From the NCBI GenBank assembly GCA_022729335.1, contig JALDAE010000002.1, forward strand, positions 1 to 50,720: a stretch of DNA of 50,720 bases, given 5' to 3'. Positions 208 to 33,622 of the stretch are shown in pieces. Position 1 is the stretch's first letter; every line of letters starts with the position of its first letter. The stretch comes from Candidatus Nanoanaerosalina halalkaliphila (GTDB taxonomy: Archaea > Nanohalarchaeota > Nanosalinia > Nanosalinales > Nanoanaerosalinaceae). The notes beneath the pieces are model-generated. The model was not told the origin of the DNA. It searched no databases and was given only the letters and a program-made list of their open reading frames with translations. Both the position numbers and the translations under genes were made by a program.

Positions 208-1338
208 TCAGTTTTCCACAACTTCATTTATTCTTTTGTCCATCTTTTCAGCGAACTTCTCCCATGTGAACTCCTTCGCTCTTTCCCTAGAATTCTTGCA
301 CATGTCCTTGTACATCTTCGTGTTTCCAACAAGTTCCGACATCTTCGAACCTATTTCCTCAGGTTCGGATTCAACCAGAAACCCTGTGTCCCAGTTCTCA
401 ACGCTTTCAGAAGGCCCTCCCTCGTCAACAGCTACAACGGGTTTTCCTGATGCCATCGCCTCCACAGGTACAATTCCCCAGTCCTCGTTCTTTGCGGTGA
501 ACAAAACCGCTGTGCACCTGCTGTACAGATCCACCATCTCGCTGTCACTTACATCTGTTTTTATCTCCACTTTGTCGGATGAAATATTCCTAAGCTCTTC
601 AACGTATTTTTTATCGTCGGGGAAACCGGCAAGTACAAGCCTGTAGTCTTCTTCAACTTTCTCGGAGAACTTTTCGAAAGCCTTCACAGCCAGGTCCTGT
701 CTCTTGTACCTTTTGAACCTGCTCGGGTAGAAGAAGAACTTCTCTTCCTCTTTTGACTTGAACCTGGACAGGTCGGCTCCAGGGTGAACCACTTCTTTTT
801 CCGCTTTTTCGGCAAGGTCCGCTCTCCGAATGTTTTCAGCAGTGTTCTGACTGTTCGCGAAAACATAATCAAAGTTTTTCCAGGCTTTTTTCTCCAGAAA
901 GCGGTAGACAGAGGCTGCGAAGGAGAAGAAAATGTTTTTCGGGAATCCGTACTGTTCTCTGTAGTGGCTGTGGAACTGGTGCGCAGCCCTCAAAGGTGTG
1001 TGGCAGTAACAGATAACAGGTTTTTCGTGGTTTCTGAACGTTATGAAGCTGCCCAGGCCTGCTTCGGACACCAGCAAAACATCATAATCGTCCAAATCAA
1101 GCTTCCCGGATATAATCCGTGGTGCTGTAAACGCTCCTCTTTTGAGAAATCCTTCGGGAACTGTTTTGTCTGTAAGCTTTTTCACTTCCACGTCGTACTC
1201 TTCAAAGCTCTCCGAAAGATAGTGTGTTACAAGCGTAACTTCGTGTGTGGATCTCTCCGCATATTCGAGCATCAGCCTCTCGATACCTCCCTTGGACTTC
1301 ATCCACGGCTGGTAAAAAAGAACCTTCATTTTTTCCAC
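208..1338 (-). CDS. Glycosyltransferase, GT4-like (GT-B fold)
   Basis: 376-aa ORF. N-terminal KSKGGIERL glycine motif and C-terminal EDWGIVPVEAMASGKPVVAVDEGGPSE (E-x7-E type nucleotide-sugar binding motif). The track start at 1338 is GTG; ATG at 1329 (MKVLFYQ) is equally plausible. Confidence 0.8.
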   Translation of the reverse strand: MEKMKVLFYQPWMKSKGGIERLMLEYAERSTHEVTLVTHYLSESFEEYDVEVKKLTDKTVPEGFLKRGAFTAPRIISGKLDLDDYDVLLVSEAGLGSFITFRNHEKPVICYCHTPLRAAHQFHSHYREQYGFPKNIFFSFAASVYRFLEKKAWKNFDYVFANSQNTAENIRRADLAEKAEKEVVHPGADLSRFKSKEEEKFFFYPSRFKRYKRQDLAVKAFEKFSEKVEEDYRLVLAGFPDDKKYVEELRNISSDKVEIKTDVSDSEMVDLYSRCTAVLFTAKNEDWGIVPVEAMASGKPVVAVDEGGPSESVENWDTGFLVESEPEEIGSKMSELVGNTKMYKDMCKNSRERAKEFTWEKFAEKMDKRINEVVEN

Positions 1339-10656: not shown

Positions 10657-11421
10657 CTATGGTATCTTCTCCCTAAAACCTTTCAGTTCTTCAAGTGCGT
10701 TCTCCATCAGACCTGTTTCCTCGAGTATGTCGGAGTGTTTTTCGATAAATCTTTCAAGGTTTTCCGCAAGCTCTTCAGCCGCCGCTCTACTAGAAACACT
10801 TTCTTCATGCATGAAATACTTGACAAGCACTTCATCAACAAAAACAGGTTCTCCAAACTTTTCTATAGTCCTTACCCACATGTCAGAGTCCTCCCATATA
10901 TCCAGGTTTTCGTCGAAAAATCCGATCTCGTCAAAAACTTCTCTTGAGAAGACAGCTGTGGACGGAGGAACTGTGTGCCCCTTTAGAACTGATTTTTTCA
11001 TGGTCATACCCTGGAAAAACGGTTTCCCTATCTTCTTCTTTTTCTCCTTGAGAAAAACCTTCTGAAACTTGGATACAGCCATCTGCCCATCTTGAATATC
11101 AAGCGCCATGATCTTCTCCTCCAGGTTTTCGGGGAACCAAACATCATCAGAATCAATAAAAGCTATGTAATCGCCGGATGATTTTTCTATACCCTTGTTC
11201 CTGGCCTCGGAAACCCCGGTTCCGTGCACCAGATACTCGACTCTTTCATCATCGAAGCTTTTCACGGCCTCTTCTGTATTATCCTCTGTTCTTTCGTCAT
11301 CAACCACCAGAACCTCCAAATTTTGGTATGTCTGGTTAAGGACGGATGCAAGAGAACGATATATCTCTTTTTCCCGGTTGTACGTCGGCAAAACAACGGA
11401 AACAAGTTTTTCAGAGTTCAA
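10657..11421 (-). CDS. Glycosyltransferase family 2
   Basis: VSVVLPTYNREKEIYRSLASVLNQTYQNLEVLVVDD plus a DSDD (DxD) motif. TTG start overlaps the last codons of smc by 11 nt (ATTGAACTCTGA). Confidence 0.8.
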   Translation of the reverse strand: MNSEKLVSVVLPTYNREKEIYRSLASVLNQTYQNLEVLVVDDERTEDNTEEAVKSFDDERVEYLVHGTGVSEARNKGIEKSSGDYIAFIDSDDVWFPENLEEKIMALDIQDGQMAVSKFQKVFLKEKKKKIGKPFFQGMTMKKSVLKGHTVPPSTAVFSREVFDEIGFFDENLDIWEDSDMWVRTIEKFGEPVFVDEVLVKYFMHEESVSSRAAAEELAENLERFIEKHSDILEETGLMENALEELKGFREKIP

Positions 11422-16773: not shown

Positions 16774-17793
16774 ATGACTAACATAGTTATCAACGGAGTC
16801 GGGACTATCGGCAAGAGAGTGGCCGAAGCTGTGAAAAAACAGGAAGACATGACGCTCTACGCCTTATCTGACGTTGCTCCAAATCCTGAGCTAAGAACCG
16901 TAAAGGAAAACTTTCTAAACGATACAAGATTGCTTGCTTCGACGGAATCAGCTGTCGACGACCTTCAGGAAGGAGGTCTTGAAGTCGATGGAGTTCTCGA
17001 GGAACATATTGACGAAATAGATCTAATAGTTGATGCCACCCCATCAGGTATAGATGAAAAGAACAAGGAAAATATCTACGAGCCTAACGATGTGAAGGCT
17101 ATATTCCAGGGCGGTTCCGACAAGAGTATCGCAGATGTATCATTCAACGCTGACGCAAACTACGAAGATGCTCTTGGTGAGGACTACGTGAGAGTTGTTT
17201 CGTGCAACACAACATCACTCTGCAGGACACTTTATGAACTTGATGACAGTTTCGGAGTAAACGAGGCAAACGTGAACCTGGTAAGAAGAGGAGGAGATCC
17301 CAAAGAAGATTCTAGAGGACCCATAAACTCTATTATACCGGTTACTGACGTTCCGTCTCACCACGGACCTGACGTGCAGGAAGTAATGCCGGAAATAGAC
17401 ATTACTACCCTTGCAGTGAAGGTTCCAACAACCCTGGCTCACGTTCACATGGTCACAACAGAGATAGAGGATGATGCAACGGAAGAAGACGTGAAAAGGG
17501 TTTTCGAAAAAAGCACTCGTATAAGCCTTGAATCAGCAGAAGAAGGCTTTTCATCAACAGCAAAGATTACAGAAAAAATGCGGGACATGCACAGAGAAAG
17601 AAACGACATGAACGAAGTAGCTGTGTGGGAGGAAACCATAACAGTCGAGGGCAAAAAAGTCTACTGGATACACATGACCCACCAGGAGTCCATAGTTGTA
17701 CCAGAAACCATAGACGCCATAAGAGCTATGCTCGAAATGGAAGAAGACAAACTCGCATCGATAGGTAAAACAAACGAAGCCCTTGGAATCTAG
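16774..17793 (+). CDS. gap: Glyceraldehyde-3-phosphate dehydrogenase, archaeal type II
   Basis: INGVGTIGKRVAEAV Rossmann motif, catalytic SCNTTSLCR, and archaeal-type length (339 aa). Confidence 0.9.
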   Translation: MTNIVINGVGTIGKRVAEAVKKQEDMTLYALSDVAPNPELRTVKENFLNDTRLLASTESAVDDLQEGGLEVDGVLEEHIDEIDLIVDATPSGIDEKNKENIYEPNDVKAIFQGGSDKSIADVSFNADANYEDALGEDYVRVVSCNTTSLCRTLYELDDSFGVNEANVNLVRRGGDPKEDSRGPINSIIPVTDVPSHHGPDVQEVMPEIDITTLAVKVPTTLAHVHMVTTEIEDDATEEDVKRVFEKSTRISLESAEEGFSSTAKITEKMRDMHRERNDMNEVAVWEETITVEGKKVYWIHMTHQESIVVPETIDAIRAMLEMEEDKLASIGKTNEALGI

Positions 17794-17803
17794 TTGATAA
17801 AAA

Positions 17804-19027
17804 ATGAATGAAAAACCTGTAACACTGTCGTTCGAGGTACATCAGCCCCATAGACTCAGGACAGACGGAGTTAACGAGGAGGCTGACACGCTATATGACC
17901 GTTATTTCGATGACAGGATGAACGAACATTTTTTCAAGGATGTTGCTGAGAACTGCTACTTTCCTGCAACTGACAGGTTGCTGGCTGCAGCAGAACACTT
18001 TCTGGATAAAGACAAACAGTTCAAGGTGAACTTTTCGATCTCCAGTTCGTGGATAGAACAGGCCAGACAGTACCATCCCGAACTTATAGAACTTCTGAAC
18101 AAATTTCCTGACGAAACAATCGATTTCATAGGGCAGAGCCATTACCACTCGCTGGCAGGACTGTTCGATGACAAGACCGAGTTCAGGACTCAGCTAAACA
18201 AGCATAAATCAATAATCAAAGAAGAGTTCGGTGTCGTTCCAGAGGTCATGACAAACACAGAGCTTATCTATCACAACGGTATAGGAAAGATATCCGCAGA
18301 GGAAGGATACAAAGGAATATTTACAGAGGGTGTTCCAAGGATTCTCGAGTGGAGATCCCCCAACCACATCTACACTCAGCCCCACATGGAAGACAGGGGT
18401 AACGCGATACTTTTGAGGAACAGGGAGCTTACAGATGACGTTGGATACAGGTTTTCTGCAGAATGGTGGGACGAATATCCACTTACAGCAGGTAAATACG
18501 CATCATGGCTTTCTGCAGAACCCGGAGAAGTTCTGAACCTGTTCATGGACTATGAAACATTTGGAGAGCACCACTGGAAAGGAACAGGCATACTAAGCTT
18601 CCTTTCTGATCTTCCGCACAAGGTGCTTGCAAGGGAAGATCTCAGGTTCGAGAAAGTCAGAGACGTCACCGATATCGATCCCGTAGGGGAGTTCGACGCC
18701 TTCGAGTTCAACACCGTTTCCTGGGCTGACCAGGAGATGGACGAGACCGCATGGCTCGGAAACCCCGTGCAGAAAAAACTGTTCGAATTCCTTGAGGATC
18801 TTGAAGAAAAGGTGAAGAAAGTTGCGAAGGACAACGAGGAATACCTGGAAGTATGGAGAAAGATGCTTACCTCCGATCATTTGCACCATATAGCTACAAA
18901 GACCTACGACGATCACTCGGTGCACAACTACTTCTCATACTTCGATCATCCGCACCAGGGATTCGCAGTAATTTTCGATCACCTGACCGATTTCAGGCTA
19001 AAAGTGGAGGAAGAGCTTAGAAAGTGA
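17804..19027 (+). CDS. Glycoside hydrolase family 57 (alpha-amylase-like)
   Basis: GH57 region I FEVHQPHR and the acid/base region FMDYETFGEHHW. 10 nt after gap. Confidence 0.8.
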   Translation: MNEKPVTLSFEVHQPHRLRTDGVNEEADTLYDRYFDDRMNEHFFKDVAENCYFPATDRLLAAAEHFLDKDKQFKVNFSISSSWIEQARQYHPELIELLNKFPDETIDFIGQSHYHSLAGLFDDKTEFRTQLNKHKSIIKEEFGVVPEVMTNTELIYHNGIGKISAEEGYKGIFTEGVPRILEWRSPNHIYTQPHMEDRGNAILLRNRELTDDVGYRFSAEWWDEYPLTAGKYASWLSAEPGEVLNLFMDYETFGEHHWKGTGILSFLSDLPHKVLAREDLRFEKVRDVTDIDPVGEFDAFEFNTVSWADQEMDETAWLGNPVQKKLFEFLEDLEEKVKKVAKDNEEYLEVWRKMLTSDHLHHIATKTYDDHSVHNYFSYFDHPHQGFAVIFDHLTDFRLKVEEELRK

Positions 19028-19035
19028 TCCTCCAG

Positions 19036-19057
19036 AAAAAAACTCTTTTTTATTTTT
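19036..19057. terminator. Bidirectional oligo-T/oligo-A tract between convergent genes
   Basis: AAAAAAACTCTTTTTTATTTTT lies between the stop of the GH57 gene (+) and the stop of the GlgA-like gene (-). Oligo-T runs are the usual archaeal termination signal. Confidence 0.4.
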
Positions 19058-19067
19058 CTAGCTAAAG

Positions 19068-20213
19068 TTATTCTACTGCGCTTCTGTAAACATTTGAAGT
19101 ATCTTCAGCTACTTTATCCCACATGTAGTTCTCTTCAACGTGTTCCCTTGCATTGTTACCCATCCAGTTAGCCCAGTCAGGGTTGTTAAGCGCTCTAGTG
19201 ACCTGTTCTTTGATGGAGTTGGGGTCCTGTGGATAGGTGTGAAGCCCTGTGTACTCGTGGATCACCGTGTCTTTCATACCTCCCACGAAAGAAGCCACCG
19301 GAGGTGTCTTGCAAGCCGATGATTCAAGAGGTACAAGACCAAACGGCTCGTACACGGATGGGGCCGTGGTTACAAGAGAATTCTTCAGAAGAGAGACAAG
19401 ATCTTCCTCGGGTATGAACCCTGTGAAATGAACTTTGTCCCCTGCATATGACTTGGCCATCGACCTGTACTCTTCCAGGTTGCCGCTACCTGCAAAAACG
19501 AACTTTGCGTCGGGATGCTCGTCCAGTATCTTCGGCATCGCCTTTATGAGATAGCTGGGTCCTTTCTGAGGGTAAAGCCTTCCTAGAAAAGTAACTATTT
19601 CCTCGTGTGGAAGCGCGTAATCCGACCTATCGAAATCATCATTTCCTTTCTCGAATCTTTCAAGGTTTACTCCGTTGGGTATGTAATGTAGTTTTTCCTC
19701 AGGAACCTCGTAATCATGCTTAACTTCATTGTAAAGATCTCTTCCAACAGTTATTACCTGTGAAGCTTCATATGTACCGTACCACTCCAGCCTCTTTATT
19801 ACTCTCTGGTATTCGCTTGTTATACCGTCTCTTCCGGACTGTGTGGAGTGAACAGTGAACGCCATCGGTTTGCCCGTGGATTTCTTTATACCTGTGGCTC
19901 CGGGTACAGCCATCCAGTCATGTGCATGAACAAAATCAAATCCGTCGTAATGTTTCTCTAGCTCTATAGCTTTCCTCTCGGCCTCGAATCCAAACTGCAT
20001 AGCCCATGAAAGAGTGTTTGGAGCTGCATCGTTAGTTGTGATTCTATGTATTTCGACACCATCCCTTTTCTCATAACCAGGCGTCTCTCCCTGTGTGATG
20101 ACAATCGGCTCGTGACCGTTCTCGGCAAGTGTGGTTGCAAGATCTTCGCAGTGGTTAGCAATTCCTCCTGCTTTTATTGGTGGATACTCCCAGGTTATGA
20201 AAAGCGGTCTCAT
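19068..20213 (-). CDS. GlgA-like glycosyltransferase (GT4/GT5 type, K-x-G-G motif)
   Basis: N-terminal FITWEYPPIKAGGIANHCEDLA (KxGG motif of prokaryotic glycogen/starch synthases) and C-terminal YEPFGLVPLESSACKTPPVASFVGGMKDTV. 381 aa. Confidence 0.75.
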   Translation of the reverse strand: MRPLFITWEYPPIKAGGIANHCEDLATTLAENGHEPIVITQGETPGYEKRDGVEIHRITTNDAAPNTLSWAMQFGFEAERKAIELEKHYDGFDFVHAHDWMAVPGATGIKKSTGKPMAFTVHSTQSGRDGITSEYQRVIKRLEWYGTYEASQVITVGRDLYNEVKHDYEVPEEKLHYIPNGVNLERFEKGNDDFDRSDYALPHEEIVTFLGRLYPQKGPSYLIKAMPKILDEHPDAKFVFAGSGNLEEYRSMAKSYAGDKVHFTGFIPEEDLVSLLKNSLVTTAPSVYEPFGLVPLESSACKTPPVASFVGGMKDTVIHEYTGLHTYPQDPNSIKEQVTRALNNPDWANWMGNNAREHVEENYMWDKVAEDTSNVYRSAVE

Positions 20214-20807
20214 TTATCCTTTCACCTCTCTGTAGACTCTTCTTGTTTCTTCCTGCCATTCCTCGGAGAAAGGACTTATCTTCTCGATTTTCTGGCCAGG
20301 AACATCAAGATCAAACAGAAGGGAGTTCTTGGTACCCTCGTTATTCGCGATTATTTTGTCCGCCTCATAACCTCCTTTCCACTCCATATCCGAAATAACA
20401 GCCGAATGCTGTCCTTCAAATCCTCTTTCGTTTTCAGTGGAATGTATAGTGGCAACAAGCGGTTTTTCAAGGTAGTTAGAAATAGTTACTCCAGAAGGTA
20501 CGCACACCCAGTCATTCACGTGTACGAGGTCGAAGCCTTCTTGCTCGAAAACCTCTCTGGACGCTCTTTTCATCTCATTGTTCATTATCATGGCCCAGTC
20601 GTATATGTTCTCGGCTTCAAAGTTAACATCGATCTTTTTTACCCTTACCTCATCCCTAACATCGAAGTCGGAGCCATCATTAAATCCGACCATAAAAACC
20701 TGGTCGCCCGAATCCACCAGATAGTTGGCGAGGTTCTTACAATACTCCGAAACTGCCTCCCCATCTCTTAAAAGCCTTGAAAGTATTAGTACGTTGATTT
20801 TAATCAC
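20214..20807 (-). CDS. Half-size glycosyltransferase-like protein (N-terminal Rossmann domain only), paralog of the downstream GT
   Basis: 197 aa that aligns by eye with residues about 1-185 of the adjacent 381-aa GT (YDWAMIMNNEMKRASREVFEQEGFDLVHVNDWVCVPSGV...TIHSTENERG versus LSWAMQFGFEAERKAIELEKHYDGFDFVHAHDWMAVPGAT...TVHSTQSGRDG). It lacks the C-terminal E-x7-E domain and the KxGG glycines. GTG start overlaps the pgi stop (GTGATTAA), and its stop abuts the next ATG. Confidence 0.6.
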   Translation of the reverse strand: MIKINVLILSRLLRDGEAVSEYCKNLANYLVDSGDQVFMVGFNDGSDFDVRDEVRVKKIDVNFEAENIYDWAMIMNNEMKRASREVFEQEGFDLVHVNDWVCVPSGVTISNYLEKPLVATIHSTENERGFEGQHSAVISDMEWKGGYEADKIIANNEGTKNSLLFDLDVPGQKIEKISPFSEEWQEETRRVYREVKG

Positions 20808-21966
20808 CTTCGAAGCGTTTCTGAATACCTATTTTTTTGCTTTTTTCTACATCCGGCTGGTTGAAAGGATTCAGTCCTCTAAAACCAGCGCTATAGTATG
20901 CTGTATACTGCAAGAGAGCAAGTAGCTCTCCACATGTTTCGGGACAAACTTTATCGATTTTCAGGTCAAAAGCAGGCATTTCTTCTGATTTCAGTGCCTC
21001 TCTTACACCTGAAAGCTCGGATCGGAGCGAATCAGCGAGGTCAGCTTCCTCGAATTCGGATAGTTGTCTCCCCCTAACGTTTACATCATTTAATTCTTCG
21101 TCTACCTTTAAAAATGTGCTTTCGTGCTCTTCGACATGGAACAGCATCGTGACCAGATCTTCCTTCCCTCCGAAAAGCCTCTGTATGGTGTGGTGTTGAC
21201 ACTCTGGCCCCACATCACCAAAAAAAGTCTGTCCTTTTCCATCCTTGCAGACGGTCTCATGCATCAGCTGCACAAGTAGAGGGTAAAATCCGAAAAGCTG
21301 TGTCGAATAAAAAGGCGTGAACACCTTGTCAAGTCCTCTCTGTTCGGCGGAGTAAAGAACGCTCGCTATCTTCTTGACATCATTTGAACTCTCCTGCTCC
21401 AACTTTCCATACATTTTCTCGGCTCCCTGCCTTATCCCTTCAAAATCAAAACCCATGAAGGCTGCAGGAACCAGGCCTGTTTCGGTTGCTCCGGTATACC
21501 TGCCGGAAATATCAGGATGCTCTATAAAATCAAAACCTTTTCTTTCGACTATCTCCCTGAGAGCGCCATCGTTGTCAGAAGTAACTGCAAATACAGGGAA
21601 TCCTTTCTCAACAAAGTGCATAAGATCCTCTATAACTCCAACGGTTTCTCCCGACTTGCTTATAGGCATTACAAGAGTTTCCTCCGGATCAAGCCTTTTT
21701 GATAATCCAGAGACTTTTTCGGGCTCCATAGTTGTCAGTATATGTGCCTCTTTGTCCTTTTTATCGCCAAGTGCTTCATTGTATGCTCTAAAAGAAGTTA
21801 CCGAACCTCCGTTTCCGATGACCACTAGGTCCTTGAAATCATGTTCCCGGGCTTTTCTTCTTATCTCCTCTATATCCGGGGAATAATCCGCAAAATCCGG
21901 TTTCTCCATGTTTAAGTCTTCTTTTTCGAATCCGCCGGTGTTGATAAATTCTATTTCAATCCCCAT
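20800..21966 (-). CDS. pgi: Glucose-6-phosphate isomerase (SIS-domain type)
   Basis: VVIGNGGSVTSFRAY and MPISKSGETVGVIED SIS motifs. 388 aa. ATG overlaps the upstream gene end by 11 nt. Confidence 0.8.
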   Translation of the reverse strand: MGIEIEFINTGGFEKEDLNMEKPDFADYSPDIEEIRRKAREHDFKDLVVIGNGGSVTSFRAYNEALGDKKDKEAHILTTMEPEKVSGLSKRLDPEETLVMPISKSGETVGVIEDLMHFVEKGFPVFAVTSDNDGALREIVERKGFDFIEHPDISGRYTGATETGLVPAAFMGFDFEGIRQGAEKMYGKLEQESSNDVKKIASVLYSAEQRGLDKVFTPFYSTQLFGFYPLLVQLMHETVCKDGKGQTFFGDVGPECQHHTIQRLFGGKEDLVTMLFHVEEHESTFLKVDEELNDVNVRGRQLSEFEEADLADSLRSELSGVREALKSEEMPAFDLKIDKVCPETCGELLALLQYTAYYSAGFRGLNPFNQPDVEKSKKIGIQKRFEGD

Positions 21967-23803
21967 TTTTTTCCCTCCTCAGAGCCATTTCATGGGCCTC
22001 GTAGTAATTCTCGATCATCTTGGTCCAGGAGGTTAACTGCACCATCTTTCTCGCATTGTGTTTTCTCTCGGTTATCTCGGTTTTCGAATAGTTCACGAAA
22101 TCCTCGATCTTTCCAGCAAGGTTATCGACAAAACTGTCGTAGGACACGTCTTTCCTGCGTATCACCTCTATACCTGGTTTTTCCATGTCCGCGTGTTCAA
22201 GCAGGAACTGTCCGAAACCCGCAAGATCAGTCGTTATAGAGAGACATCCGCTTGCAGCAGTTTCTACAGGAGTGTAACCCCATGGCTCGTAGTAGCTCGG
22301 AAATATTCCTGCGCTTGTGGCTTTTATAGCGTCCTCGTAGGACATGGAAAGCATCTTGTCCCCTCTTGAGAGGTATGTCGGGTAGAACACAACTTTGACC
22401 CTGTCATCCTCCCTGTTCTCAAGGCCGTTTTCTCTTAGCCTTTCAAGCACGTCATCGTTATCGTAGTTAAGCGTGTAGGCGCATAGAGGCGGAATACCTC
22501 CTCTTTTTTCGTGAAAGTTCTGCCTTATAACTTCCAGTTCGTGAGAGTCCGAAAGCCAGTCCTTCACAAACTTCTCCGCGTTCTCTCCAGAGGTAATCTT
22601 GTCCAGTAACTCTGTTTTAAGATCCGGCAAAATAGAGTCGATGTAATCCTCGAGCTCATCGTAAAGGGACATGTTTTCAAGCACGTCAAGCCTCTCTCCC
22701 CTTACATCGGCCGGGACAAATATGAATACAAAGAAGTCATCTCCCTCTTTTTCGTTCAGCTTCCCCAGAGAGTCTATAAATGCGTCCAGACCCTTGTTGT
22801 GGAACTCGTATCTCCCGGATATGAACAGTATTCTGGGGTCGTTGTCGAGATCGATCTTGTAGTATGGTTCGAAATACGCTCTAAGAAACTTTTTCATCCT
22901 TTTCTTCTTTTTCTTGTGCTGGTAGGATAATTCCTCGAGGCTCGGGAACTCCTCGACGTTAAATCCATTGGGCAAAACTTTATCGGGCTCAACTCCAAGA
23001 ACAGCATCAGCTTCCCTGGCAGTTACATCGGAAACTGTTGTGAAAACATCCGCATCCATGGCTCCCGCCTTCTCAACCTGGTGCCTTGATTTTACACCGT
23101 ACTCTTCGGCAATTGATTCTCCAAAGCTTTTCTCCATCTTGCTAAGTCTTGTATACCTGTGTTTAACGTCTTCAGCTATTTCTTCCTGTGACTCGGCATC
23201 CTCCACCATAGAAACAACGTCCCGGCCCGCGTTAGACAGTGCTCTTCCAAGGACTGTTGCATGAGTCGTGAAAACGCTCGGTATGTCTGTCTCGAATATT
23301 GCAGGTGCCGAAAGCCATTCATGAGCATGGAGAACGGTGTTTCCCTCGAACTTTTCGGAAAGTTTCTGGACAAGTTTGCCCACGGCAAAAGCCCATTTCA
23401 CAGGGTCCTCAAACATGGGGCCTGAATTCAAAGAATCAATCTTGTAATCCTCCCAGAGCTCTGCTTTTATCTCATTAACATCTTTTTTAAGATCTGATGC
23501 ATCAACAAGGATACATTCAGGACTGTAAGGTAGTTTCCAAACTCCGTGAGTGCATTTTATTCCGTACTCTTCTTCAAGTTCGTCAAATATTTCCTTAAAA
23601 TCATGCGTGGATCGCTTTGCAAAATCTTTTCTGGCATTTTCCTCGTCGTAATATCCTATGGTGAGGTAGTTATCACCATACATTTTCTTCATCTGGCAGG
23701 CCTTTGATTTTAGAACCTGATATATGCCTCCTACCTTGTTGGCCACTTCATAGGAAACCTCAACGAGGTTATCTGGAGTATTATATTTATCTTTTCCGGA
23801 CAT
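21956..23803 (-). CDS. Glycogen synthase, eukaryote-type (CAZy GT3-like)
   Basis: N-terminus [39 protein letters not shown] and C-terminal [31 protein letters not shown]. From memory these closely resemble animal/fungal glycogen synthase blocks ([22 protein letters not shown]... and [15 protein letters not shown]...). Confidence 0.85.
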   Translation of the reverse strand: [615 protein letters not shown]

Positions 23804-23921
23804 ATATACATTGATACCGGTTTTAAGTTAAAAATTTATCCAAAAAAATGCTGTAAAAGATGTTATGACCTTTATTTAGTAAATACAAAATTTATAATGT
23901 ATCGTCACAATTTGTTTATAT

Positions 23922-25682
23922 ATGGACTATACAATTGAAGAAGATTTCCAGGAGTACTGCGGAACTATCTCCAACATGCACGGCTTCCTTCACAGGTATC
24001 TGGACACAGGTTTTAAAACGAAATGGGCGGGTTACTGGGTGCCTCCAAACAAGTTTATGGACTACTATGCTTTCGAGGTCAACGGAAAATGGTTATCTCC
24101 AGAAACTCTTGTAAAGACAGAATACGGCGACAAAATAATTTATCATCATAATCTAGGAAGTTTAAGAGTGAAGGAGATAGTGGAAACGCCCGAAGAACTG
24201 CCTGGTTTTAGGGTCACCCTTGAATTCGAAAATTTGACTCCGGAACCAAAAGCCGTGTATACAAAGATCGAGCTGGGTGTGGATATCAGACACAAGTCCG
24301 AGGATGTTGAAAACCCTGGCTACAAGACGGAGTTCTCCAAGAAAAAGCTTCTTGTTGAGTCTTACGGCAGGCACCTTCTAATGAGTTCCGAGAAACCCAT
24401 GAAAATGAAGGGAAAAGAAAGAACCAGAGAACACCACCCTGGAGAAAGACAGGTATGTATGGTGCCCGGAGAACAACACTTCAAAGTAGAACTGGGACCT
24501 GAAAAAACAGGGAAGAACGTTCTTGAATTTACGACAAACGATCAAAGGTTCGGAAAGCTGGACGAAAAAGAGAACGATGTAGAACTTGGAAATAATAATG
24601 ATATGCTGGAAAGAGCGTTCCAGTGCTCTGAAGAAAGCCTAAGAAATCTTGTTTATGATAGAGAAGGTAAGGGTGTTATTGCCGGTCACCCCTGGTTCCA
24701 AGAGTACTGGAGCAGAGATGCCTACTGGTCCTTGATGGGTCTGATCGACCTTGGTTATTTCGAGCTTTCCAAAAAAATACTTCACAACTTTGCGGTGCAG
24801 GAAGGATTTCCAAACCAGATAACATTTGATGAGGGCAAAGCCGGTTATCTGGGAGAGGACGTGCCTCCTCTATTCATCATAGCGGCCGAAGAGCTAAAGA
24901 AGTACCACCACGTTACAGATGAAACCGAAGAAAAAGAGATGGAGGCATTGAAACACCTAAAAATTGGGGAAGGCAACGTGGTGACCCATAAACCGGAAGG
25001 AACATGGATGGACACGCTTGAAAGAGACAGAGCGATTGATATACACTCTCTATGGCTGGAAGCAGTTGAAAGGCTTGGAGCCACATCAAAAGAGATACTT
25101 CAAAGAGGAATGGAAAAATTCAGGGAAGGTGATATACTGAAAGATTGTTTGGAAGAAAAAAAAGTCGCTGTAAACAGCGCTATTCCTCTAATGTTCGGCC
25201 ATTTCGAAGACGAAAAACTTGTTGAAAAATTAAACTCCTGTCTAAAAACTGATTACGGTGCTGCCACTCTTTCCACCAAGGACAGCGAATACAGTCCAGA
25301 AGGATACCATACAGGATCAACATGGGGTCTTACAACAGGATGGCTCGCCGCTGCAAACCTGAAGAACGGAAAGTTGGATGAAGGCCTTGAAATACTGTCC
25401 AGATTTGCAGAGACAGTTGAACAAGATCAGCCGGGAGCACTACCAGAAGTTATCAACTCGGAAACAGGAGAAAACATAGGATGTGTGGAACAGGCCTGGA
25501 GCGCATCTATGGTAATCCATGTTATCGACAGATACCTTTTTGGAATAGATGTTAAAGATGGGGAACTTGTTGCAGATCCCGTGGACGGATTCACAGGTAA
25601 AAGAAAATACAAGAGATTCAAGAACAATCTCTACCATGTAAGGGTTCAGGACGGAGATGCAAGGATAGACAAGGTGGTATGA
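23922..25682 (+). CDS. Amylo-alpha-1,6-glucosidase / glycogen debranching enzyme family protein
   Basis: GHPWFQEYWSRDAYWSLMGL and an (alpha/alpha)6-barrel-type C-terminal half (GYHTGSTWGLTTGWLAAA, QAWSASMVIHV), typical of archaeal GDE_C proteins. Confidence 0.8.
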   Translation: MDYTIEEDFQEYCGTISNMHGFLHRYLDTGFKTKWAGYWVPPNKFMDYYAFEVNGKWLSPETLVKTEYGDKIIYHHNLGSLRVKEIVETPEELPGFRVTLEFENLTPEPKAVYTKIELGVDIRHKSEDVENPGYKTEFSKKKLLVESYGRHLLMSSEKPMKMKGKERTREHHPGERQVCMVPGEQHFKVELGPEKTGKNVLEFTTNDQRFGKLDEKENDVELGNNNDMLERAFQCSEESLRNLVYDREGKGVIAGHPWFQEYWSRDAYWSLMGLIDLGYFELSKKILHNFAVQEGFPNQITFDEGKAGYLGEDVPPLFIIAAEELKKYHHVTDETEEKEMEALKHLKIGEGNVVTHKPEGTWMDTLERDRAIDIHSLWLEAVERLGATSKEILQRGMEKFREGDILKDCLEEKKVAVNSAIPLMFGHFEDEKLVEKLNSCLKTDYGAATLSTKDSEYSPEGYHTGSTWGLTTGWLAAANLKNGKLDEGLEILSRFAETVEQDQPGALPEVINSETGENIGCVEQAWSASMVIHVIDRYLFGIDVKDGELVADPVDGFTGKRKYKRFKNNLYHVRVQDGDARIDKVV

Positions 25683-26890
25683 GGTTGGACTGGAAGAAAA
25701 AGTACGTTGAAGTGGCCAGAAATTTTTCTGTGGATAGAGAAAAAACATTTCTTTCGGGTTTCAACGCCAACATAGACAGGGTTTTCAGGGCGGATGAAGT
25801 TCTGACCAGAAATCCGGAGGAAGAGGATCTAGGATCAATTGAATCATATGAAGACTTGTTGAAAGTTCTCAAATACTGCAAAGAAAACGGAAAAAACAAG
25901 GAAATCGATATAGAGAGTTATAAACCCGAAATAGAAGGAGGAGAGACGTATATAGGCGGGCAGGGAGGTATTGTATCCACGTTTTGCTCCCGGATCGGAA
26001 CCGATTCCGTGATTTACACTCCTTTTATCTCGGAAAAGCTATCTGAAGCCATGGACAGTGATATAAAAACAAAGAGCTGTGAAGAAAACAGTTTTACGTA
26101 TATAGAAAATGCATTAAACTCGGAAAAGACGAAAGAAAATATGATTTTTGAGTTTCAGGGAGATAAAACAGGCAGATTGATACTTTCAGACAGCTTAGAA
26201 GGTTTTGAACCTGTATTCATGGAGGATGATGACTTCCTTGACTTTATAGATGAAAAAGTTGACCGGTTTTTCTTCTCGGGCTTTCATCACATAAGCAACG
26301 AAGAAATAGATACAGCAAAAGAACAGCTAAAATATCTTGATACGTCCATACACCTTGAATACGTTTACAATGATGAAGATAAGGCTAGAAAGATTGTAAA
26401 TAATATTTTTCCTTTTGTTGAAAGTATCGGATGTGACGGAGATGAGATGGAACAAATAATGGAAGTTAAAGGCATGGAAAAACCCCAGAACACCAGGGAG
26501 TACATTGAAAAGATGGAAAAGATAGCAAGAGACTCCGGTATCGAAAGGTTTCATGTCCACACCTACAATTTCCACATGTGCATGGTGAGGAAAGGCTACG
26601 GAATAGATGTGGAGAGAGTTCTGGATTCGATGTTGTTCGGAGAATTATGCGCAATAGCTTCTGCAGATAAAGGAGACATACCTTACCTGGAAGATATCAG
26701 AAATTTTTCTATGAACAACAAACACCTGAAGGGAGAAGGAAAGGTTAGAAGGATCTCCGATAACGGCATAATAGAAAAAGAGGATTTCTATGTTCTGATG
26801 ATCCCGATCATAATACATGAGAAGCCGGAAAGGCTAGTAGGTCTTGGCGACCTTATCTCCTCGGGAAGTTTTTTCTCCGAGGTTTTCTAA
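25679..26890 (+). CDS. ADP-dependent sugar kinase (glucokinase/phosphofructokinase family)
   Basis: FNANIDRVF, IGGQGGIVSTF, FFFSGFHHI, SIGCDGDEMEQI and C-terminal RLVGLGDLISSGSF follow the ADP-PFK/GK family pattern. The start overlaps the debranching-enzyme stop (ATGA), with GGTGG just upstream. Confidence 0.8.
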   Translation: MRLDWKKKYVEVARNFSVDREKTFLSGFNANIDRVFRADEVLTRNPEEEDLGSIESYEDLLKVLKYCKENGKNKEIDIESYKPEIEGGETYIGGQGGIVSTFCSRIGTDSVIYTPFISEKLSEAMDSDIKTKSCEENSFTYIENALNSEKTKENMIFEFQGDKTGRLILSDSLEGFEPVFMEDDDFLDFIDEKVDRFFFSGFHHISNEEIDTAKEQLKYLDTSIHLEYVYNDEDKARKIVNNIFPFVESIGCDGDEMEQIMEVKGMEKPQNTREYIEKMEKIARDSGIERFHVHTYNFHMCMVRKGYGIDVERVLDSMLFGELCAIASADKGDIPYLEDIRNFSMNNKHLKGEGKVRRISDNGIIEKEDFYVLMIPIIIHEKPERLVGLGDLISSGSFFSEVF

Positions 26891-27408
26891 GTCCAGTAAT
26901 CCTCCAAAACATCTTTTTTCTCGATATATCCTTCCTGTGTATCTTCTAATGTCTCTTTCATAACCTTCGTGTCCAGAGCTGTTTCCATAAAACCTCTGTC
27001 TTTTTCATAGATAGGTACCAGCTGAACGTGGAGGTGCGGAATTGATTCTCCGGCTGCTTCTCCTAGATTTATGCCTACATTAATTCCTGCAGGATCTCTT
27101 ACTTTTCTCTGAAGTTCTTCCACTTTTTGGACCATTGCAAAAAGCCTGTCACGTTCCTCGTCTTCCAGCTCGGTCAGGGAATTTACGTGTTTCTTGGGAA
27201 CAACCATCAGGTGGCCTGTGTTATAGGGAAAAATGTTCAGAATAACCATCAGAAAATCATCTTCAAATACGGAAAGCTTTGTGACTCTTTCGTCTCCTTT
27301 TGCCTGAGCACAGAACACACAGTCAATATCTTCAGGGATCTCGGCAACCTCATATTTTTTTCTCTCGGGACTCCATAGATAGGTCTCGTACGGATGTGTG
27401 TCTGACAT
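26887..27408 (-). CDS. HIT-superfamily nucleotide hydrolase/transferase with an H-x-H-x-Q motif
   Basis: CVFCAQ, NTGHLMVVPKKH and GESIPHLHVQLVP. The third histidine of the histidine triad is Gln. 173 aa. Confidence 0.8.
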   Translation of the reverse strand: MSDTHPYETYLWSPERKKYEVAEIPEDIDCVFCAQAKGDERVTKLSVFEDDFLMVILNIFPYNTGHLMVVPKKHVNSLTELEDEERDRLFAMVQKVEELQRKVRDPAGINVGINLGEAAGESIPHLHVQLVPIYEKDRGFMETALDTKVMKETLEDTQEGYIEKKDVLEDYWT

Positions 27409-30400: not shown

Positions 30401-33400
30401 TTATTCAATTAGCTCCAGTTCCGGAGAGTCATACAAGGGCTCGCAGACACCTGGTTCTTCGCAGTTATTTGTTATACACTGATCATCATTTTCACATTCC
30501 TGGCCGGTTTCGAGCATGATCTCGATACTTTCAAGATGGTGCTTTCCTTCATTCCCCTGTCTATCTTCGGAATTAAGATGAAGTGCTTTGACATCGTAAT
30601 CATCCCATGACTCCGAGCACTCTATTTCAACAGGCTGTTCTCTTTCACCGTCAAAATTTTCTTCACATATCTTGTTGGAACAATCTTGTTCTTCACATAA
30701 AGATAAAGATTCTATTCCTGATTCTTTGTCAAACGCTTCAGCTTCTATAGTCGCTTCGTCACCTGAAGATACTGTATCCCAGTCCTCTTCACCTTCAACC
30801 AGTACCCTGTAATCCTCAAGTTCAGGAGGATATGTATCTTCTCTCCATATCGGAAAGGATTCATCCTCTTCTTTTTTACATACAAAGTAATCGTCTTCAA
30901 GCATCTCAAGAGAGTATTCGAAATGGTAACTGATTATCTCGTCGGGTATGTTACTGTAATGAGTCGGAGCTCCATCCTCTTGACAGAAAGCTATTTCTTC
31001 CTTGTCATCAGGACACAAAAACTCTTGATCCTCAAAGTTTGAGCCTTCATACTCTTTGTTCAGCCAGCTATCGTCTTCCTCACATCTTCTGAAAACATGG
31101 AAGCTCTCTATTTCCGTGTCCTGTTCTTTACCCATTGCTCCGTCAAACTGCTTGTCAAAAGACTGGTCTTCAAGAGAATCTGTCAAACTTTGATATACAT
31201 CTTCGTCCATTTCTCCATCCTGGTAATCTCCTGTTATGCTGTCTTCAAGTTGATCAAGCGGGCTATTCTCTTCTTCAAAAAGATCTTCAGACCAGTCAAA
31301 TACAAAAGAGTCTTCTGGAGGTCCAAAACCTGCGTCACCTATTTCTGTTCCATCATGGGCCACTCCTTCAAGTTCAACAGTGTTTTCCAGGCAGTCCTCC
31401 CAGTTGTACATACACCTGGCGAAGTTAGTCATGTTAACCTGCTCAAGTGCTCTCCAGTTCCAAGAAGTATCAAGGATCTGTTCATAGATCACATCCATTT
31501 TTAGGTAACCGTGGTATCCTTCTTCATCCTCAACCAGCCATGACTCTGTTTCAATCTCTATCTCGTATTCCCCTGACTCTTCCATGTCTTCAATAGAAAT
31601 TATCCTTATAGTTCTTCCATCGTCTTCTTGTTTCATCGGCGCTCCATCAATTACCCGAGAGTTAACATCAGTCCATTCCCTTATGTATGGAATTATATCG
31701 TCCAGATCTCTATCAGCAATCTCTTCGCCTTTATAAGGTCTTCTATACTCTATGTCGTCTATAACAACCTCGAATTTATTTTCTCCTTCTTCCATATCTC
31801 CTAGAGAAACAATTTCGATTCGTTCTGTTTCGGAAAAGACAGATTCATCAAGTTCTTCGTTGTTGCTGTCTATTATTTCCAAGCGCTCTCCTTCTTCCTT
31901 GTCCAAAAAGTCTTCAGCGACATCTATATCGTCTTCGTTAAAATCAGAAACATTGGAAACTGTGCCGTCTTCAACACTCGAGTATCCCATATCCAGTCCT
32001 CCGGTGTCAACCTCGATGAAATAAGGATCTTTTTCCTCGACCTCCTCCGAACCCGAGCTAACTACCTCATTGAAAGTATCGATGGTGACATAATTCAGTC
32101 TATCCGTGTCTTCAAGCCCGCAATAATCTTCAAAAGTGCTAATTTCGTTTTCAAATTCGGATTCAATCTCGTATATATCATCAAACTCTAGTTCAGAATC
32201 TCTTATATCTACTTCGCAGCTCTCGGATAAAACCCTTGTAATGGTTGTATCTTCATCCATCTCTACCTGATCATCGTCCGGATCCGGTGCCTCGGCACCC
32301 ATAAGGTAATCAGGTCCAAGCCATAAATCCTCAAGACTCAGGCCATCGTGCTGCCCTTCAGCTATCTCCGTAATGTTGTACCTGTCACCTTCATCAAAAT
32401 CTTCTCCCGGCAACTCTAGATTTTCCTCTTCCACCACCTTGTTAAGAGCTTCGGCGAATCTTTCTCGCCAAGCCCATAGACGATAACTTCTTAACTCGTT
32501 TTCAGGTTCGTAAACAAGTTTAAAAGATTTCTGCGAAGGCATTTCGATTTCATCAAGCCTTCCGAACTGATCACCGTCATCTCCGTAATACACGTTGTGG
32601 TGAGCCGCATAAAGACCTGTTTTCTCTGTGTATCCTTCGCCGTAAACCTCATCTATATCTATACTGTCATCCAAAGTCATTTCATTTTGAAGCCTGGCAA
32701 AAGGCACTCTGTTCATACACGCCAAAATAGTCATATACATGCTCAAATACATATCTTGCTCAGATTCAAACGCAGGAGTACCTATGGAAGCGTAACCTCC
32801 TGGACTCAAACTGTAACCTGTGTTTATATCTCCGGTCGGATGTCTCTGTGAAAGTCCTTGTATAGATGGACAAACCGAATCGTCCTCGTTAACAGAAATA
32901 CTTTCGAGTGTGTTAAGGTTCATACTTTCTATTTTTTCCTGGTCAAGAAACGGGGCGTCTTGGTGTTCGGACGGAATGCTCGTTCCATCTGAAACAGCAA
33001 CATCCTCCTCAGGATCTCCACAGACCATTTGAACTCCACCTCCTCCCAAATCCAGTTCATCCCTATCTACTGTCTCTATGTGAGACGTTGCTCCGCTACC
33101 ACAGTCATGCCTATTACCAACCACATCTGGATCGTATAATATAGGGTCTTCAGGAGTTCCACATACCTTGAGGCTATCAACATCATTAGGCATATCGTCG
33201 GAGTCCTCGAGCGAACCATCCCATCCCGAGCCTATGTTGTCATTGGGATCAAAAGCATGCCTCATGAAATACTCGACATCTCCTTCGGGATACACTTCTC
33301 CGTCCTCGTTCCATTGACTGACATAATCATCCCATGAACCATCGAATTCCTCCCATTCCTGGGGCTGGGGACAGTCATCGAAGGAAGAAATCCTGTCATC

Positions 33401-33622
33401 GGTCGTACAATACTGGATAGGTCGATCATCAACAACTCTGTATATCTGATCACAGTAATAGAGTTCGCCGTCTATTATTCCGTCTTGACATCCTGTAAGG
33501 TAGTGAAGGGCGTCAACTGTCCTGTCCCCCGGAGGAGAAGGAGCAGCAGGATCGGCGTTTACGAATGTTAAACCAAAAACGAATAAAAACACCATAAAAA
33601 CAACTAATTTTCCTCCTTTCAT
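30401..33622 (-). CDS. Hyper-acidic secreted protein with Cys-rich termini, unknown function
   Basis: 1073-aa ORF. Signal-like MKGGKLVVFMVFLFVFGLTFVNA. By eye roughly a third of residues are D/E. Cys clusters occur near the N-terminus (GCQDG...YYCDQ...QYCTTDD...DDCPQP) and C-terminus (QECENDDQCITNNCEEPGVCEP). Internal repeat IEIVSLGDMEEGENKFEVVID / IRIISIEDMEESGEYEIEIET. GGAGGA lies upstream, and the ATG overlaps the upstream stop (ATGA). No TM anchor. Confidence 0.75.
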   Translation of the reverse strand: MKGGKLVVFMVFLFVFGLTFVNADPAAPSPPGDRTVDALHYLTGCQDGIIDGELYYCDQIYRVVDDRPIQYCTTDDRISSFDDCPQPQEWEEFDGSWDDYVSQWNEDGEVYPEGDVEYFMRHAFDPNDNIGSGWDGSLEDSDDMPNDVDSLKVCGTPEDPILYDPDVVGNRHDCGSGATSHIETVDRDELDLGGGGVQMVCGDPEEDVAVSDGTSIPSEHQDAPFLDQEKIESMNLNTLESISVNEDDSVCPSIQGLSQRHPTGDINTGYSLSPGGYASIGTPAFESEQDMYLSMYMTILACMNRVPFARLQNEMTLDDSIDIDEVYGEGYTEKTGLYAAHHNVYYGDDGDQFGRLDEIEMPSQKSFKLVYEPENELRSYRLWAWRERFAEALNKVVEEENLELPGEDFDEGDRYNITEIAEGQHDGLSLEDLWLGPDYLMGAEAPDPDDDQVEMDEDTTITRVLSESCEVDIRDSELEFDDIYEIESEFENEISTFEDYCGLEDTDRLNYVTIDTFNEVVSSGSEEVEEKDPYFIEVDTGGLDMGYSSVEDGTVSNVSDFNEDDIDVAEDFLDKEEGERLEIIDSNNEELDESVFSETERIEIVSLGDMEEGENKFEVVIDDIEYRRPYKGEEIADRDLDDIIPYIREWTDVNSRVIDGAPMKQEDDGRTIRIISIEDMEESGEYEIEIETESWLVEDEEGYHGYLKMDVIYEQILDTSWNWRALEQVNMTNFARCMYNWEDCLENTVELEGVAHDGTEIGDAGFGPPEDSFVFDWSEDLFEEENSPLDQLEDSITGDYQDGEMDEDVYQSLTDSLEDQSFDKQFDGAMGKEQDTEIESFHVFRRCEEDDSWLNKEYEGSNFEDQEFLCPDDKEEIAFCQEDGAPTHYSNIPDEIISYHFEYSLEMLEDDYFVCKKEEDESFPIWREDTYPPELEDYRVLVEGEEDWDTVSSGDEATIEAEAFDKESGIESLSLCEEQDCSNKICEENFDGEREQPVEIECSESWDDYDVKALHLNSEDRQGNEGKHHLESIEIMLETGQECENDDQCITNNCEEPGVCEPLYDSPELELIE

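Follow-up and report, generated by a model that had tools for sequence, protein, structure and literature searches.

Background

Eukaryote-type glycogen synthases of glycosyltransferase family 3 (GT3) occur in DPANN archaea and in some Euryarchaeota, where they are uncharacterised and where their priming is regarded as an open question (Cifuente et al., Chemical Reviews 2024, PMC11046441). According to the same review, the "glycogenin-like" annotation of Ca. Nanohalobium failed a hidden Markov model check, no glycogenin homologue is confirmed in DPANN, and the family 4 glycosyltransferase (GT4) of archaeal glycogen clusters is question-marked (e.g., in P. torridus, where it occurs with glycoside hydrolases of families GH133 and GH57), its authors speculating that it is possibly an unrecognised glycogen synthase (PMC11046441). 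The same kind of gene set is found in a stretch of 50,720 nucleotides from Candidatus Nanoanaerosalina halalkaliphila (GenBank assembly GCA_022729335.1, contig JALDAE010000002.1, positions 1 to 50,720 of the forward strand; hereafter the window), where a minus-strand operon encodes a GT3 synthase, a glucose-6-phosphate isomerase (PGI), a protein comprising only the N-terminal domain of a GT4 enzyme (half-GT) and a full-length GT4. With moderate confidence we propose that this is the core nanohaloarchaeal glycogen operon, in which the GT4 together with the half-GT would start chains and the GT3 would elongate them.

Glycosyltransferases made of two proteins, one of them inactive on its own, are known from other organisms, e.g., Alg13/Alg14 and the streptococcal GtfA/GtfB, and in the latter the GT4 enzyme receives its acceptor from a catalytically dead GT-B paralogue. 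The nanohaloarchaeal pair differs from both, as Alg13 and Alg14 complement each other to give a single enzyme whereas the partner of the half-GT is already complete, and GtfB is a full-length GT-B protein whereas the half-GT is an isolated N-domain. In plants, starch synthase 5 (SS5) resembles the half-GT in being without the C-terminal GT1 subdomain. The Arabidopsis protein has been described as a non-enzymatic glucan-synthase paralogue that promotes initiation by interacting with other proteins (PMC10801857, citing Abt et al. 2020). SS5 is, however, a eukaryotic protein of the GT5 lineage, is not operon-encoded and partners with MRC; its likeness to the half-GT would be one of functional analogy, the recognised homology being confined to the GT-B fold. 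The accessible text of the review (PMC11046441) and of the nanohaloarchaeal genome papers mentions neither an N-domain-only paralogue and its pairing with GT4, nor the fusions of GH57 branching enzymes with GT4 and the adjacent NTP-transferase/phosphoglucomutase (PGM) fusions described below.

A conserved, tightly packed four-gene operon

The operon and its flanking spacers comprise:

21956-23803, minus strand, GT3 glycogen synthase gene, 615 aa, first gene of the operon
20800-21966, minus strand, pgi, 388 aa, PGI of the short bacterial/archaeal type
20214-20807, minus strand, half-GT, 197 aa, GTG start, N-domain-only paralogue of the GT4
19068-20213, minus strand, full-length GT4, 381 aa, last gene of the operon
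23804-23921, 118 nt, AT-rich spacer between the divergent GT3 (minus) and glycogen debranching enzyme (GDE, plus) genes, with a TATA-like TTTTTAA found by sequence inspection
19028-19067, 40 nt, spacer between the convergent GT4 (minus) and GH57 (plus) genes, with an A-run and a T7-run found by sequence inspection

The original prediction had described four minus-strand genes joined head to tail by two overlaps and a stop/start abutment, and the open reading frames (ORFs) and junctions match this description exactly. The overlap of GT3 with pgi is 11 nt long, the GT3 stop codon TGA (21956-21958) lying inside ATGGGGATTGA; pgi and the half-GT overlap by 8 nt, the stop of the one and the start of the other both falling in GTGATTAA; and the TAA stop of the half-GT directly abuts the ATG of the GT4 (TAAATG). 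Shine-Dalgarno-like motifs precede pgi (GGAGG, 8 nt 5' of its ATG) and the GT4 (GAGGTGA, ~10 nt 5' of its ATG), and there is no space for promoters between the genes inside the four-gene unit. The TATA-like TTTTTAA sits ~25-31 nt upstream of the GT3 ATG, and the spacer at 23804-23921 is a putative promoter region; at the other end, the T7-run within 19028-19067 may serve as an oligo-T terminator. A scan for sigma-70 promoters and intrinsic terminators gave nothing above shuffled sequences, using bacterial models that are not appropriate for archaea.

We scanned one genome per species and obtained 43 loci, 42 of them nanohaloarchaeal and one from Aenigmatarchaeota (L039). The order GDE on one strand, then GT3, PGI, half-GT and GT4 on the other, then GH57 again on the first, is complete in 34 of the 42 nanohaloarchaeal loci, and the remaining eight are cut by contig ends and consistent with it. 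Given that the same order recurs in these 34 complete and eight truncated loci, from different nanohaloarchaeal species-level genomes, the four-gene arrangement is far beyond chance. Junctions in the relatives mostly range from -4 to +12 nt, and the operon is both translationally coupled and conserved. The homologues are labelled Nanohaloarchaea (labels of relatives derive from the titles of metagenome-assembled genomes, MAGs), and the nearest genomes are the MAGs NHA22 and NHA24 (Ca. Nanoanaerosalina), with 75-90% amino-acid identity. Across 35 genomes the GT4 is the most conserved member (mean pairwise identity 77%), ahead of GT3 (65%), PGI (57%) and the half-GT (55%).

Transcript data are available for the orthologues in Ca. 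Nanohalococcus occultus, SVXNc_0131-0134, with 1963 reads per kilobase per million (RPKM) for GT3, 1010 for PGI, 238 for the half-GT and 963 for the GT4, next to 1012 for the GDE and 1104 for the GH57 (PMC10266531, Table S1). That paper names SVXNc_0131 alone "glycogen synthase", the other two transferases being "glycosyltransferase" (PMC10266531). As regards the co-expression implied by the original prediction, all four orthologues are thus expressed, in one sample that does not prove a single transcript.

The co-occurrence of a GT3 and a GT4 synthase had been called unusual in the original prediction, a reasonable interpretation in part but one that overstated its rarity. It is the rule in Nanohaloarchaea (42 loci) and common elsewhere: in a scan based on the GT3 alignment, a GT4-like gene lay within 8 kb of GT3 in 27 DPANN, candidate phyla radiation (CPR) and nanohaloarchaeal loci, usually together with GH57 and often with DUF5752, the hosts spanning Woesearchaeota, Aenigmatarchaeota, Iainarchaeota, Parvarchaeota, other DPANN, Nanohaloarchaea, several CPR lineages and some MAGs labelled Methanosarcinales. 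Among Planctomycetota and Bacteroidota only one locus had a GT4-like gene near GT3. The pairing of GT3 and GT4 is therefore typical and already catalogued (PMC11046441). DUF5752 (PF19027) itself occurs repeatedly alongside GH57 and GT3 in glycogen clusters of DPANN and CPR, in some cases as a small gene and in others appended to the C-terminus of GH57 (L046 2075-2383; L105 3478-5034, at the C-terminus; L137, L143-L149, L158, L170, L176, L177 and L204).

Two glycosyltransferases of different families and a divergent isomerase

The first gene encodes a eukaryote-type GT3 glycogen synthase, as judged from its sequence: PF05693 (Glycogen_syn) matches over the full length (2.3e-113; 380 bits, cut-off 27), human GYS1 is aligned through its residues 29-615 with residues 13-610, and GYS1, yeast Gsy2 and the C. 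elegans glycogen synthase all match at ~3e-84. The whole catalytic core of the eukaryotic enzymes is aligned, and the donor-binding R331/K337 (GRYEFHNKG) and the E-x7-E motif (E506-PWGYTPV-E514) are retained and invariant in 36/36 nanohaloarchaeal orthologues. What the archaeal protein does not have are the N- and C-terminal phosphoregulatory tails (615 aa against 705-737 aa), and, unlike the eukaryotic GT3 with its glycogenin, it is encoded in an operon with PGI, GT4 and a half-GT, with no family GT8 glycogenin in the window. The absence of glycogenin, GlgC and GalU noted in the original prediction is borne out, as a Pfam-type family search found no NTP_transferase (GlgC/GalU), PGM or GT8 among window ORFs of at least 120 aa.

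The allosteric glucose 6-phosphate (G6P) site is partly matched. Yeast Gsy2 binds G6P through H286, K290, H500, R583, R587, Q283 and N284, and three of these seven have equivalents in the window GT3 (H296, K300 and K581), all invariant, while R583 is replaced by I577, H500 by S497 and Q283/N284 by S/Y. A conserved basic helix (R580, K581, H582, R585) together with H296 and K300 makes up this partial match, which hints that the GT3 may be under G6P control, with the key arginine missing.

The second gene encodes a divergent, short glucose-6-phosphate isomerase of the PGI/SIS superfamily. Its PF00342 match is weak (27.4 bits against a cut-off of 22) and the NCBIfam PGI models reach 1e-33 while missing every equivalog cut-off (117 against 487); the Thermus thermophilus PGI (1zzg) matches at 4e-23 with the SKSGET, GRY, QH and FNQPDVEKSK motifs aligned. 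The gene occupies the same position in every complete nanohaloarchaeal locus.

The last gene carries both halves of a GT-B enzyme, i.e., Glyco_transf_4 (PF13439, 97 bits) and Glycos_transf_1 (PF00534, 139 bits), both above cut-offs, and its KAGG loop, R212/K217 and E-x7-E motif (E289-PFGLVPL-E297) are invariant or nearly so. Its AlphaFold2 (AF2) model is a GT-B fold with a mean pLDDT of 94. The two transferases thus belong to different families, GT3 by PF05693 and the ~3e-84 matches to GYS1 and Gsy2, GT4 by Pfam and NCBIfam, as originally predicted; of the looser label "GT4/GT5" given to the second one, GT4 holds and GT5 does not. An assignment as GT5-type GlgA (TIGR02095/PRK00654) was rejected, at 94 bits against a cut-off of 328 and with the C-domain only, as was one as GlgM, i.e., glgA_Coryne (TIGR02149), at 146 bits against a cut-off of 302 and with no GlgE-like gene in the window. 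GlgM is nevertheless the best NCBIfam match of the GT4 (1.7e-42; TM-score 0.85, 25% identity), from which it differs in scoring under half of the family cut-off, in having no GlgE context and in having orthologues fused to branching enzymes. The Pyrococcus abyssi glycogen synthase (PaGS, GT5) is similar in size and fold (TM-score 0.83-0.85, 24-26% identity) and has a KxGG-type loop, whereas the window GT4 carries the Pfam and NCBIfam signatures of GT4 and not of GT5. The protein is in fact structurally equidistant from MshA, PaGS, GlgM and sucrose-phosphate synthase (SPS), at TM-scores of ~0.83-0.88, and a fold search cannot discriminate its acceptor.

More is to be learned from the genes with which GT4 orthologues travel. 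Bacterial orthologues are 35-40% identical to the window GT4, and in four Bacillota (Alicyclobacillus ferrooxydans, an Alicyclobacillaceae isolate, Phosphitispora and a Bacillaceae MAG) the GT4 part (35-37% identical) is fused to a GH57 enzyme with a BE_C domain, giving proteins of 929-958 aa:

L132 4375-7212, L116 4315-7191, L113 4354-7155 and L129 801-3590, GH57 branching enzyme::GT4 fusions

Each of the four fusions is followed by an NTP_transferase-PGM/phosphomannomutase (PMM) fusion of ~850 aa, and such a fusion is the next gene in ~20 bacterial GT4 loci and in Bathyarchaeota. The two fusion proteins would together form a two-gene pathway from G6P to branched glucan, which we did not find described in the searchable literature. 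In archaea, the half-GT/GT4 pair occurs with GH57 and GDE (L039, L051, L104, L117, L126) and, in L046, with GH57, GDE, GT3, a non-orthologous SIS-type PGI and fructose-1,6-bisphosphatase. Based on the branching-enzyme fusions, the adjacent NDP-sugar-forming fusions and these glucan-gene neighbourhoods, we strongly infer that the GT4 is an NDP-glucose-dependent alpha-glucan synthase; a GlgM-like role appears less likely.

The half-GT, a conserved N-domain without a donor-binding domain

The 197-aa product of the third gene contains Glyco_transf_4 as its sole Pfam domain and has no donor-binding C-domain. It aligns to residues 17-179 of the neighbouring GT4 with 31% identity (E 9e-30), and its tail EETRRVYR matches the tail of the GT4, EDTSNVYR, in the last helix. 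The AF2 model (pLDDT 90.2) consists of a Rossmann domain plus a helix at 184-196, and the half-GT and GT4 models (pLDDT 90 and 94) share the same order of secondary structures in the N-domain, the last element of the half-GT being the crossover helix by which GT-B chains return to the N-domain. In fold searches the half-GT comes closest to the N-domains of MshA, GlgM, PaGS and SPS. Its architecture is shared by an engineered Thermosynechococcus SPS (6ldq, residues 27-220 + 406-426), in which the N-domain is likewise combined with the C-terminal crossover helix (TMq 0.73, TMt 0.78); this construct is a laboratory truncation and not a natural gene, and is 15% identical to the half-GT. The half-GT therefore arose through clean removal of the donor-binding Rossmann domain, with the crossover helix retained.

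In addition, the KxGG loop has degenerated, reading DGE in Nanohaloarchaea and RxVG in Bathyarchaeia. With both this loop and the whole donor-binding domain lost, the half-GT is predicted, from sequence and model, to be unable to bind a sugar nucleotide in GT-B fashion and hence to be non-catalytic. In E. coli glycogen synthase structures, the Asp of the HxHDW motif and the His of the T-x-H motif line the sugar/acceptor side of the cleft. The only PDB sequence match of the half-GT profile is PaGS, at the HxHDW...TIH motif, and D99/W100 are kept throughout Nanohaloarchaea, with the His changed to Gln in one subclade; it is plausible that the half-GT binds an acceptor.

The half-GT is a real, constrained gene under purifying selection. 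Among 30 sequences 28 columns are invariant, including HxxDW and STENERGF, and pN is 0.06-0.19 against a saturated pS (dN/dS <=0.14), comparable to PGI. There are more than 140 homologue clusters of ~200 aa, and a profile search of 1.8 billion representative sequences yielded dozens of divergent half-GTs of 180-230 aa; in 36 aligned divergent members only W100, E125 and E142 (window numbering) are invariant, R128 nearly so. Several distant half-GTs (P0249, P0261, P0274, P0275) have a C-terminal tail in which a variable linker leads to an AYMGVPSE/A-like end motif, reminiscent of a docking peptide. A conserved-looking ORF of ~80 aa without Pfam match lies directly 5' of the half-GT in loci of the Bathyarchaeia type (L047 1184-1426, L048 663-908, L105 5098-5349) and may be a third component of the half-GT/GT4 module.

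Pairing of half-GT and GT4 across archaea

In every archaeal context fetched, the half-GT lies directly 5' of a GT4 orthologue, usually with a 4-nt overlap (Aenigmatarchaeota L039, Bathyarchaeota L048/49 and contigs L045, L046, L047, L050, L051 and L052). In a scan based on the GT4 alignment, the half-GT was found upstream in 19/23 archaeal loci (Nanohaloarchaea, Nanobdellati, Bathyarchaeia) and in 0/57 bacterial loci, and no half-like ORF was present within 8 kb of GT3 in Bacteroidota loci. In a neighbour-joining tree of the N-domains, the halves are monophyletic in 85/100 bootstraps and their partner GT4s in 96/100, with the same internal grouping. Mirrored, monophyletic halves and GT4s of this kind point to one ancient duplication with domain loss, followed by co-inheritance; the half-GT and the GT4 are paralogous and co-inherited.

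A split arrangement of another sort was seen only in an unrelated locus, on a gut Firmicute contig (L053 8001-9338), where a glycosyltransferase is present as an N-half gene (198 aa) and a C-half gene (219 aa) adjoining a GH57 branching enzyme and DUF4912. A genuine split enzyme and a frameshift would both explain it, and it is distinct from the archaeal module of a half plus a complete GT4. For the latter, a split enzyme of the Alg13/14 type was ruled out, the downstream GT4 being complete with its own N-domain.

The literature searched contained no description of a half-GT, a non-catalytic GT4 paralogue or a GH57-GT4 fusion, an absence that applies to the searchable library. The conserved pairing of a pseudo-enzyme with GT4 is apparently a new, archaea-specific variant of the theme in which a dead paralogue assists a glycosyltransferase.

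A proposed division of labour and its alternatives

We propose the following scheme. PGI would convert gluconeogenic fructose 6-phosphate (F6P) into G6P, the entry point to glycogen, and would run in reverse during degradation, beside the ADP-dependent glucokinase/phosphofructokinase encoded nearby, with PGM and an NDP-glucose pyrophosphorylase presumably encoded outside the window. Two non-redundant retaining glucosyltransferases, GT3 and GT4, would then build the alpha-1,4-glucan. The half-GT would act as a non-catalytic subunit or regulator of the GT4, e.g., by binding acceptors or oligomerising via its N-domain, and the two may form a physical complex. Chains would be started de novo by the GT4 and the half-GT and elongated by the GT3, replacing the glycogenin that eukaryotic GT3 enzymes need. 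That reduced genomes of DPANN and CPR keep GT3, a GT4-like gene and GH57 in one cluster counts in favour of both synthases being non-redundant, and as reduced genomes keep GT3 and GT4 and have no glycogenin, a split into priming (GT4 and half-GT) and elongation (GT3) is plausible. A more specific version, in which the half-GT holds or presents the nascent glucan, or nucleates a hetero-oligomer, and a short primer made by the GT4 is passed to the GT3, i.e., a glycogenin-independent initiation machine, is tentative and we consider it doubtful at present.

Several observations weigh against this scheme. The half-GT is absent at all 57 bacterial and at four Bathyarchaeia GT4 loci, so the GT4 can act alone, and in Woesearchaeota and CPR, many clusters with GT3 contain a GT4-like gene but no half, these GT4-like genes forming a sister subfamily with 28-32% identity. 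In a mirror-tree analysis, half-GT distances track those of GT3/PGI (partial r 0.43) above those of the GT4 (0.27), the best correlation being with GT3 (r 0.70). In Ca. Nanohalococcus occultus, the only data set, half-GT RPKM is ~1/4 of that of the GT4. The nearest characterised relatives of the GT4, namely SPS, MshA and GlgM, use small phosphorylated acceptors, PaGS being no closer, and the protein misses the cut-offs of both glgA models. Lastly, there is no recognisable branching enzyme in the window, the 407-aa GH57 being without BE_C, despite the presence of a GH133-type debranching enzyme; branching may be a task of this GH57 subfamily or of an enzyme encoded at another place, unless the polymer carries few branches.

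The first alternative to be considered concerns the product of the GT4, which, with the half-GT, could make a small phosphorylated glucoside (maltose-1-phosphate, a sucrose-6-phosphate-like compound or a G6P/F6P-linked disaccharide) from an acceptor supplied by PGI, leaving the GT3 as the sole synthase. The best PDB sequence and fold matches of the GT4, i.e., SPS (6kih, 3e-29), MshA and GlgM, use sugar-phosphate acceptors, GlgM is its best NCBIfam match, the F6P/G6P-interconverting PGI gene lies directly upstream, and many annotated GT4 "GlgA" are really GlgM (PMC11046441). Yet the TIGR02149 score stays far from the cut-off, a true glycogen synthase, PaGS, is equally close in fold and highest in identity, and the branching-enzyme fusions of bacterial orthologues fit a polymer-making enzyme. 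Furthermore, no GlgE, sugar-phosphate phosphatase or maltokinase is present in the window or named for cultured Nanohaloarchaea in the accessible text of their genome papers, and half-GT4 clusters of most other lineages are without PGI, all of which makes a small-glucoside product unlikely. It is also improbable that GT3 and GT4 are redundant or condition-specific synthases (e.g., using different NDP-glucose donors) and that the half-GT regulates only the GT4. Archaeal GT5 enzymes do accept several NDP-glucoses and haloarchaea have GDP-glucose pyrophosphorylases (PMC11046441), bacterial GT4 orthologues appear sufficient for the whole pathway, and the Planctomycetota and Bacteroidota GT3 loci manage, with one exception, without a nearby GT4. 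Genomes of ~1 Mb nevertheless keep both synthases in one operon class-wide, as do many DPANN and CPR genomes, where redundancy is rarely kept, and eukaryotic GT3 enzymes need a primer while no glycogenin homologue is confirmed in DPANN (PMC11046441).

Two further alternatives concern the half-GT. It might serve the GT3 as an acceptor-presenting or scaffolding factor in the manner of glycogenin or SS5, its adjacency to the GT4 merely reflecting its origin by duplication. The mirror-tree correlation with GT3 would be accounted for in this way, and GT3 does lie within a few kb of the half-GT in Nanohaloarchaea and in the DPANN loci L046, L117 and L126; the half-GT4 pair with its 4-nt overlap is, however, found without GT3 in the fetched flanks of L039, Bathyarchaeia, L045, L047, L050 and L052, most DPANN and CPR GT3 clusters are without a half, and the half and GT4 phylogenies mirror each other exactly at the resolved level, so that a role as a GT3 factor seems quite unlikely. 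That the half-GT is a functionless remnant of a tandem duplication or of a split gene, as half a glycosyltransferase adjoining its paralogue might suggest, is extremely improbable. Its length of ~200 aa is conserved in the more than 140 homologue clusters and in several phyla, its dN/dS is low and its motifs invariant, the excision is clean with the crossover helix kept, it is expressed in SVXNc (RPKM 238) and its partner GT4 is complete; a pseudogene or decaying remnant was ruled out by this combination of conservation, dN/dS, clean domain boundaries and expression.

The surrounding sugar-metabolism cluster

The operon is embedded in a larger cluster of sugar-metabolism genes, for glycolysis, glycogen turnover and gluconeogenesis:

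16774-17793, plus strand, archaeal glyceraldehyde-3-phosphate dehydrogenase, 339 aa (Gp_dh_C 1e-25), syntenic in relatives, edge of the supercluster
17804-19027, plus strand, GH57 alpha-glucan-active enzyme, 407 aa (PF03065 1.4e-65), without a BE_C domain
23922-25682, plus strand, GDE_C (GH133-type) amylo-alpha-1,6-glucosidase-like enzyme, 586 aa (PF06202 3.4e-21), divergent from GT3
25679-26890, plus strand, ADP-dependent phosphofructokinase/glucokinase (ADP-PFK/GK), 403 aa (PF04587 1.5e-39), syntenic in relatives
26887-27408, minus strand, HIT-family protein, 4.7e-29 to an ATP adenylyltransferase/Ap4A-phosphorylase model, below cut-off

The GH57 gene adjoins the GT4 in Nanohaloarchaea, Aenigmatarchaeota, Bathyarchaeia and other DPANN loci, and the position of the GDE, named glycogen debranching enzyme in cultured relatives, is conserved as well. 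Further window neighbours are phosphoglycerate kinase, a class I aldolase and the pyruvate dehydrogenase complex. The HIT protein also has a weak match to the C-domain of GalT; its gene keeps its place beside the glycogen cluster in almost all Nanohaloarchaea, in the order MinD-HIT-(PMM)-ADPK-(TIM)-GDE followed by GT3, where ADPK is the ADP-dependent kinase and TIM triose-phosphate isomerase, and lies close to the half-GT/GT4 pair in L052 too. The HIT protein might conceivably act in nucleotide-sugar or nucleotidyl transfer.

The window version of this cluster (16774-27408) is more compact than that of other Nanohaloarchaea (L004-L044, SVXNc_0125-0140). It is without the PMM/PGM gene (in the gap between HIT and ADP-PFK/GK), without TIM (between ADP-PFK/GK and GDE) and without a second GT4 by the GH57 gene, all of which sit inside the cluster in most other Nanohaloarchaea. 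NHA22 and NHA24 are also without the second GT4 by GH57, and their loci stop short of the PMM and TIM positions. Another GT4 of 376 aa is encoded in the window at 208-1338 (minus strand), ~25% identical to the operon GT4 and not orthologous to the second GT4 of other Nanohaloarchaea, and a family 2 glycosyltransferase gene (10657-11421, minus strand) sits between the SMC and ScpA genes. Three large ORFs have no Pfam match (2163-5906, plus strand, 1247 aa; 30401-33622, minus strand, 1073 aa; 33619-35040, minus strand, 473 aa) and are possibly surface proteins typical of DPANN; a 284-aa ORF after the first of them carries a Lamin Tail Domain.

Implications

The conservation of the half-GT with the GT4 across archaeal phyla, which the original prediction had missed, is in our view the most interesting part of this locus. 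The finding bears on two questions that the review leaves open, i.e., how GT3 is primed without glycogenin and what the GT4 of archaeal clusters does (PMC11046441), as the GT4 gains a concrete, testable assignment as a putative alpha-glucan synthase and priming becomes directly testable. Should the half-GT be only a minor regulator, the finding shrinks to a well-conserved, already catalogued glycogen operon. If initiation by the half-GT and GT4 is real, it would be an archaeal answer to GT3 priming, and owing to its presence in both DPANN and Bathyarchaeia, it may be ancestral or parallel to initiation by glycogenin and glycogen synthase and by SS4/SS5 in plants. Nanohaloarchaea, like numerous other DPANN symbionts, are considered to centre their energy metabolism on glycogen turnover, and the starch/glycogen-based mutualism shown for Ca. 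Nanohalobium gives the machinery that makes this polymer an ecological relevance.

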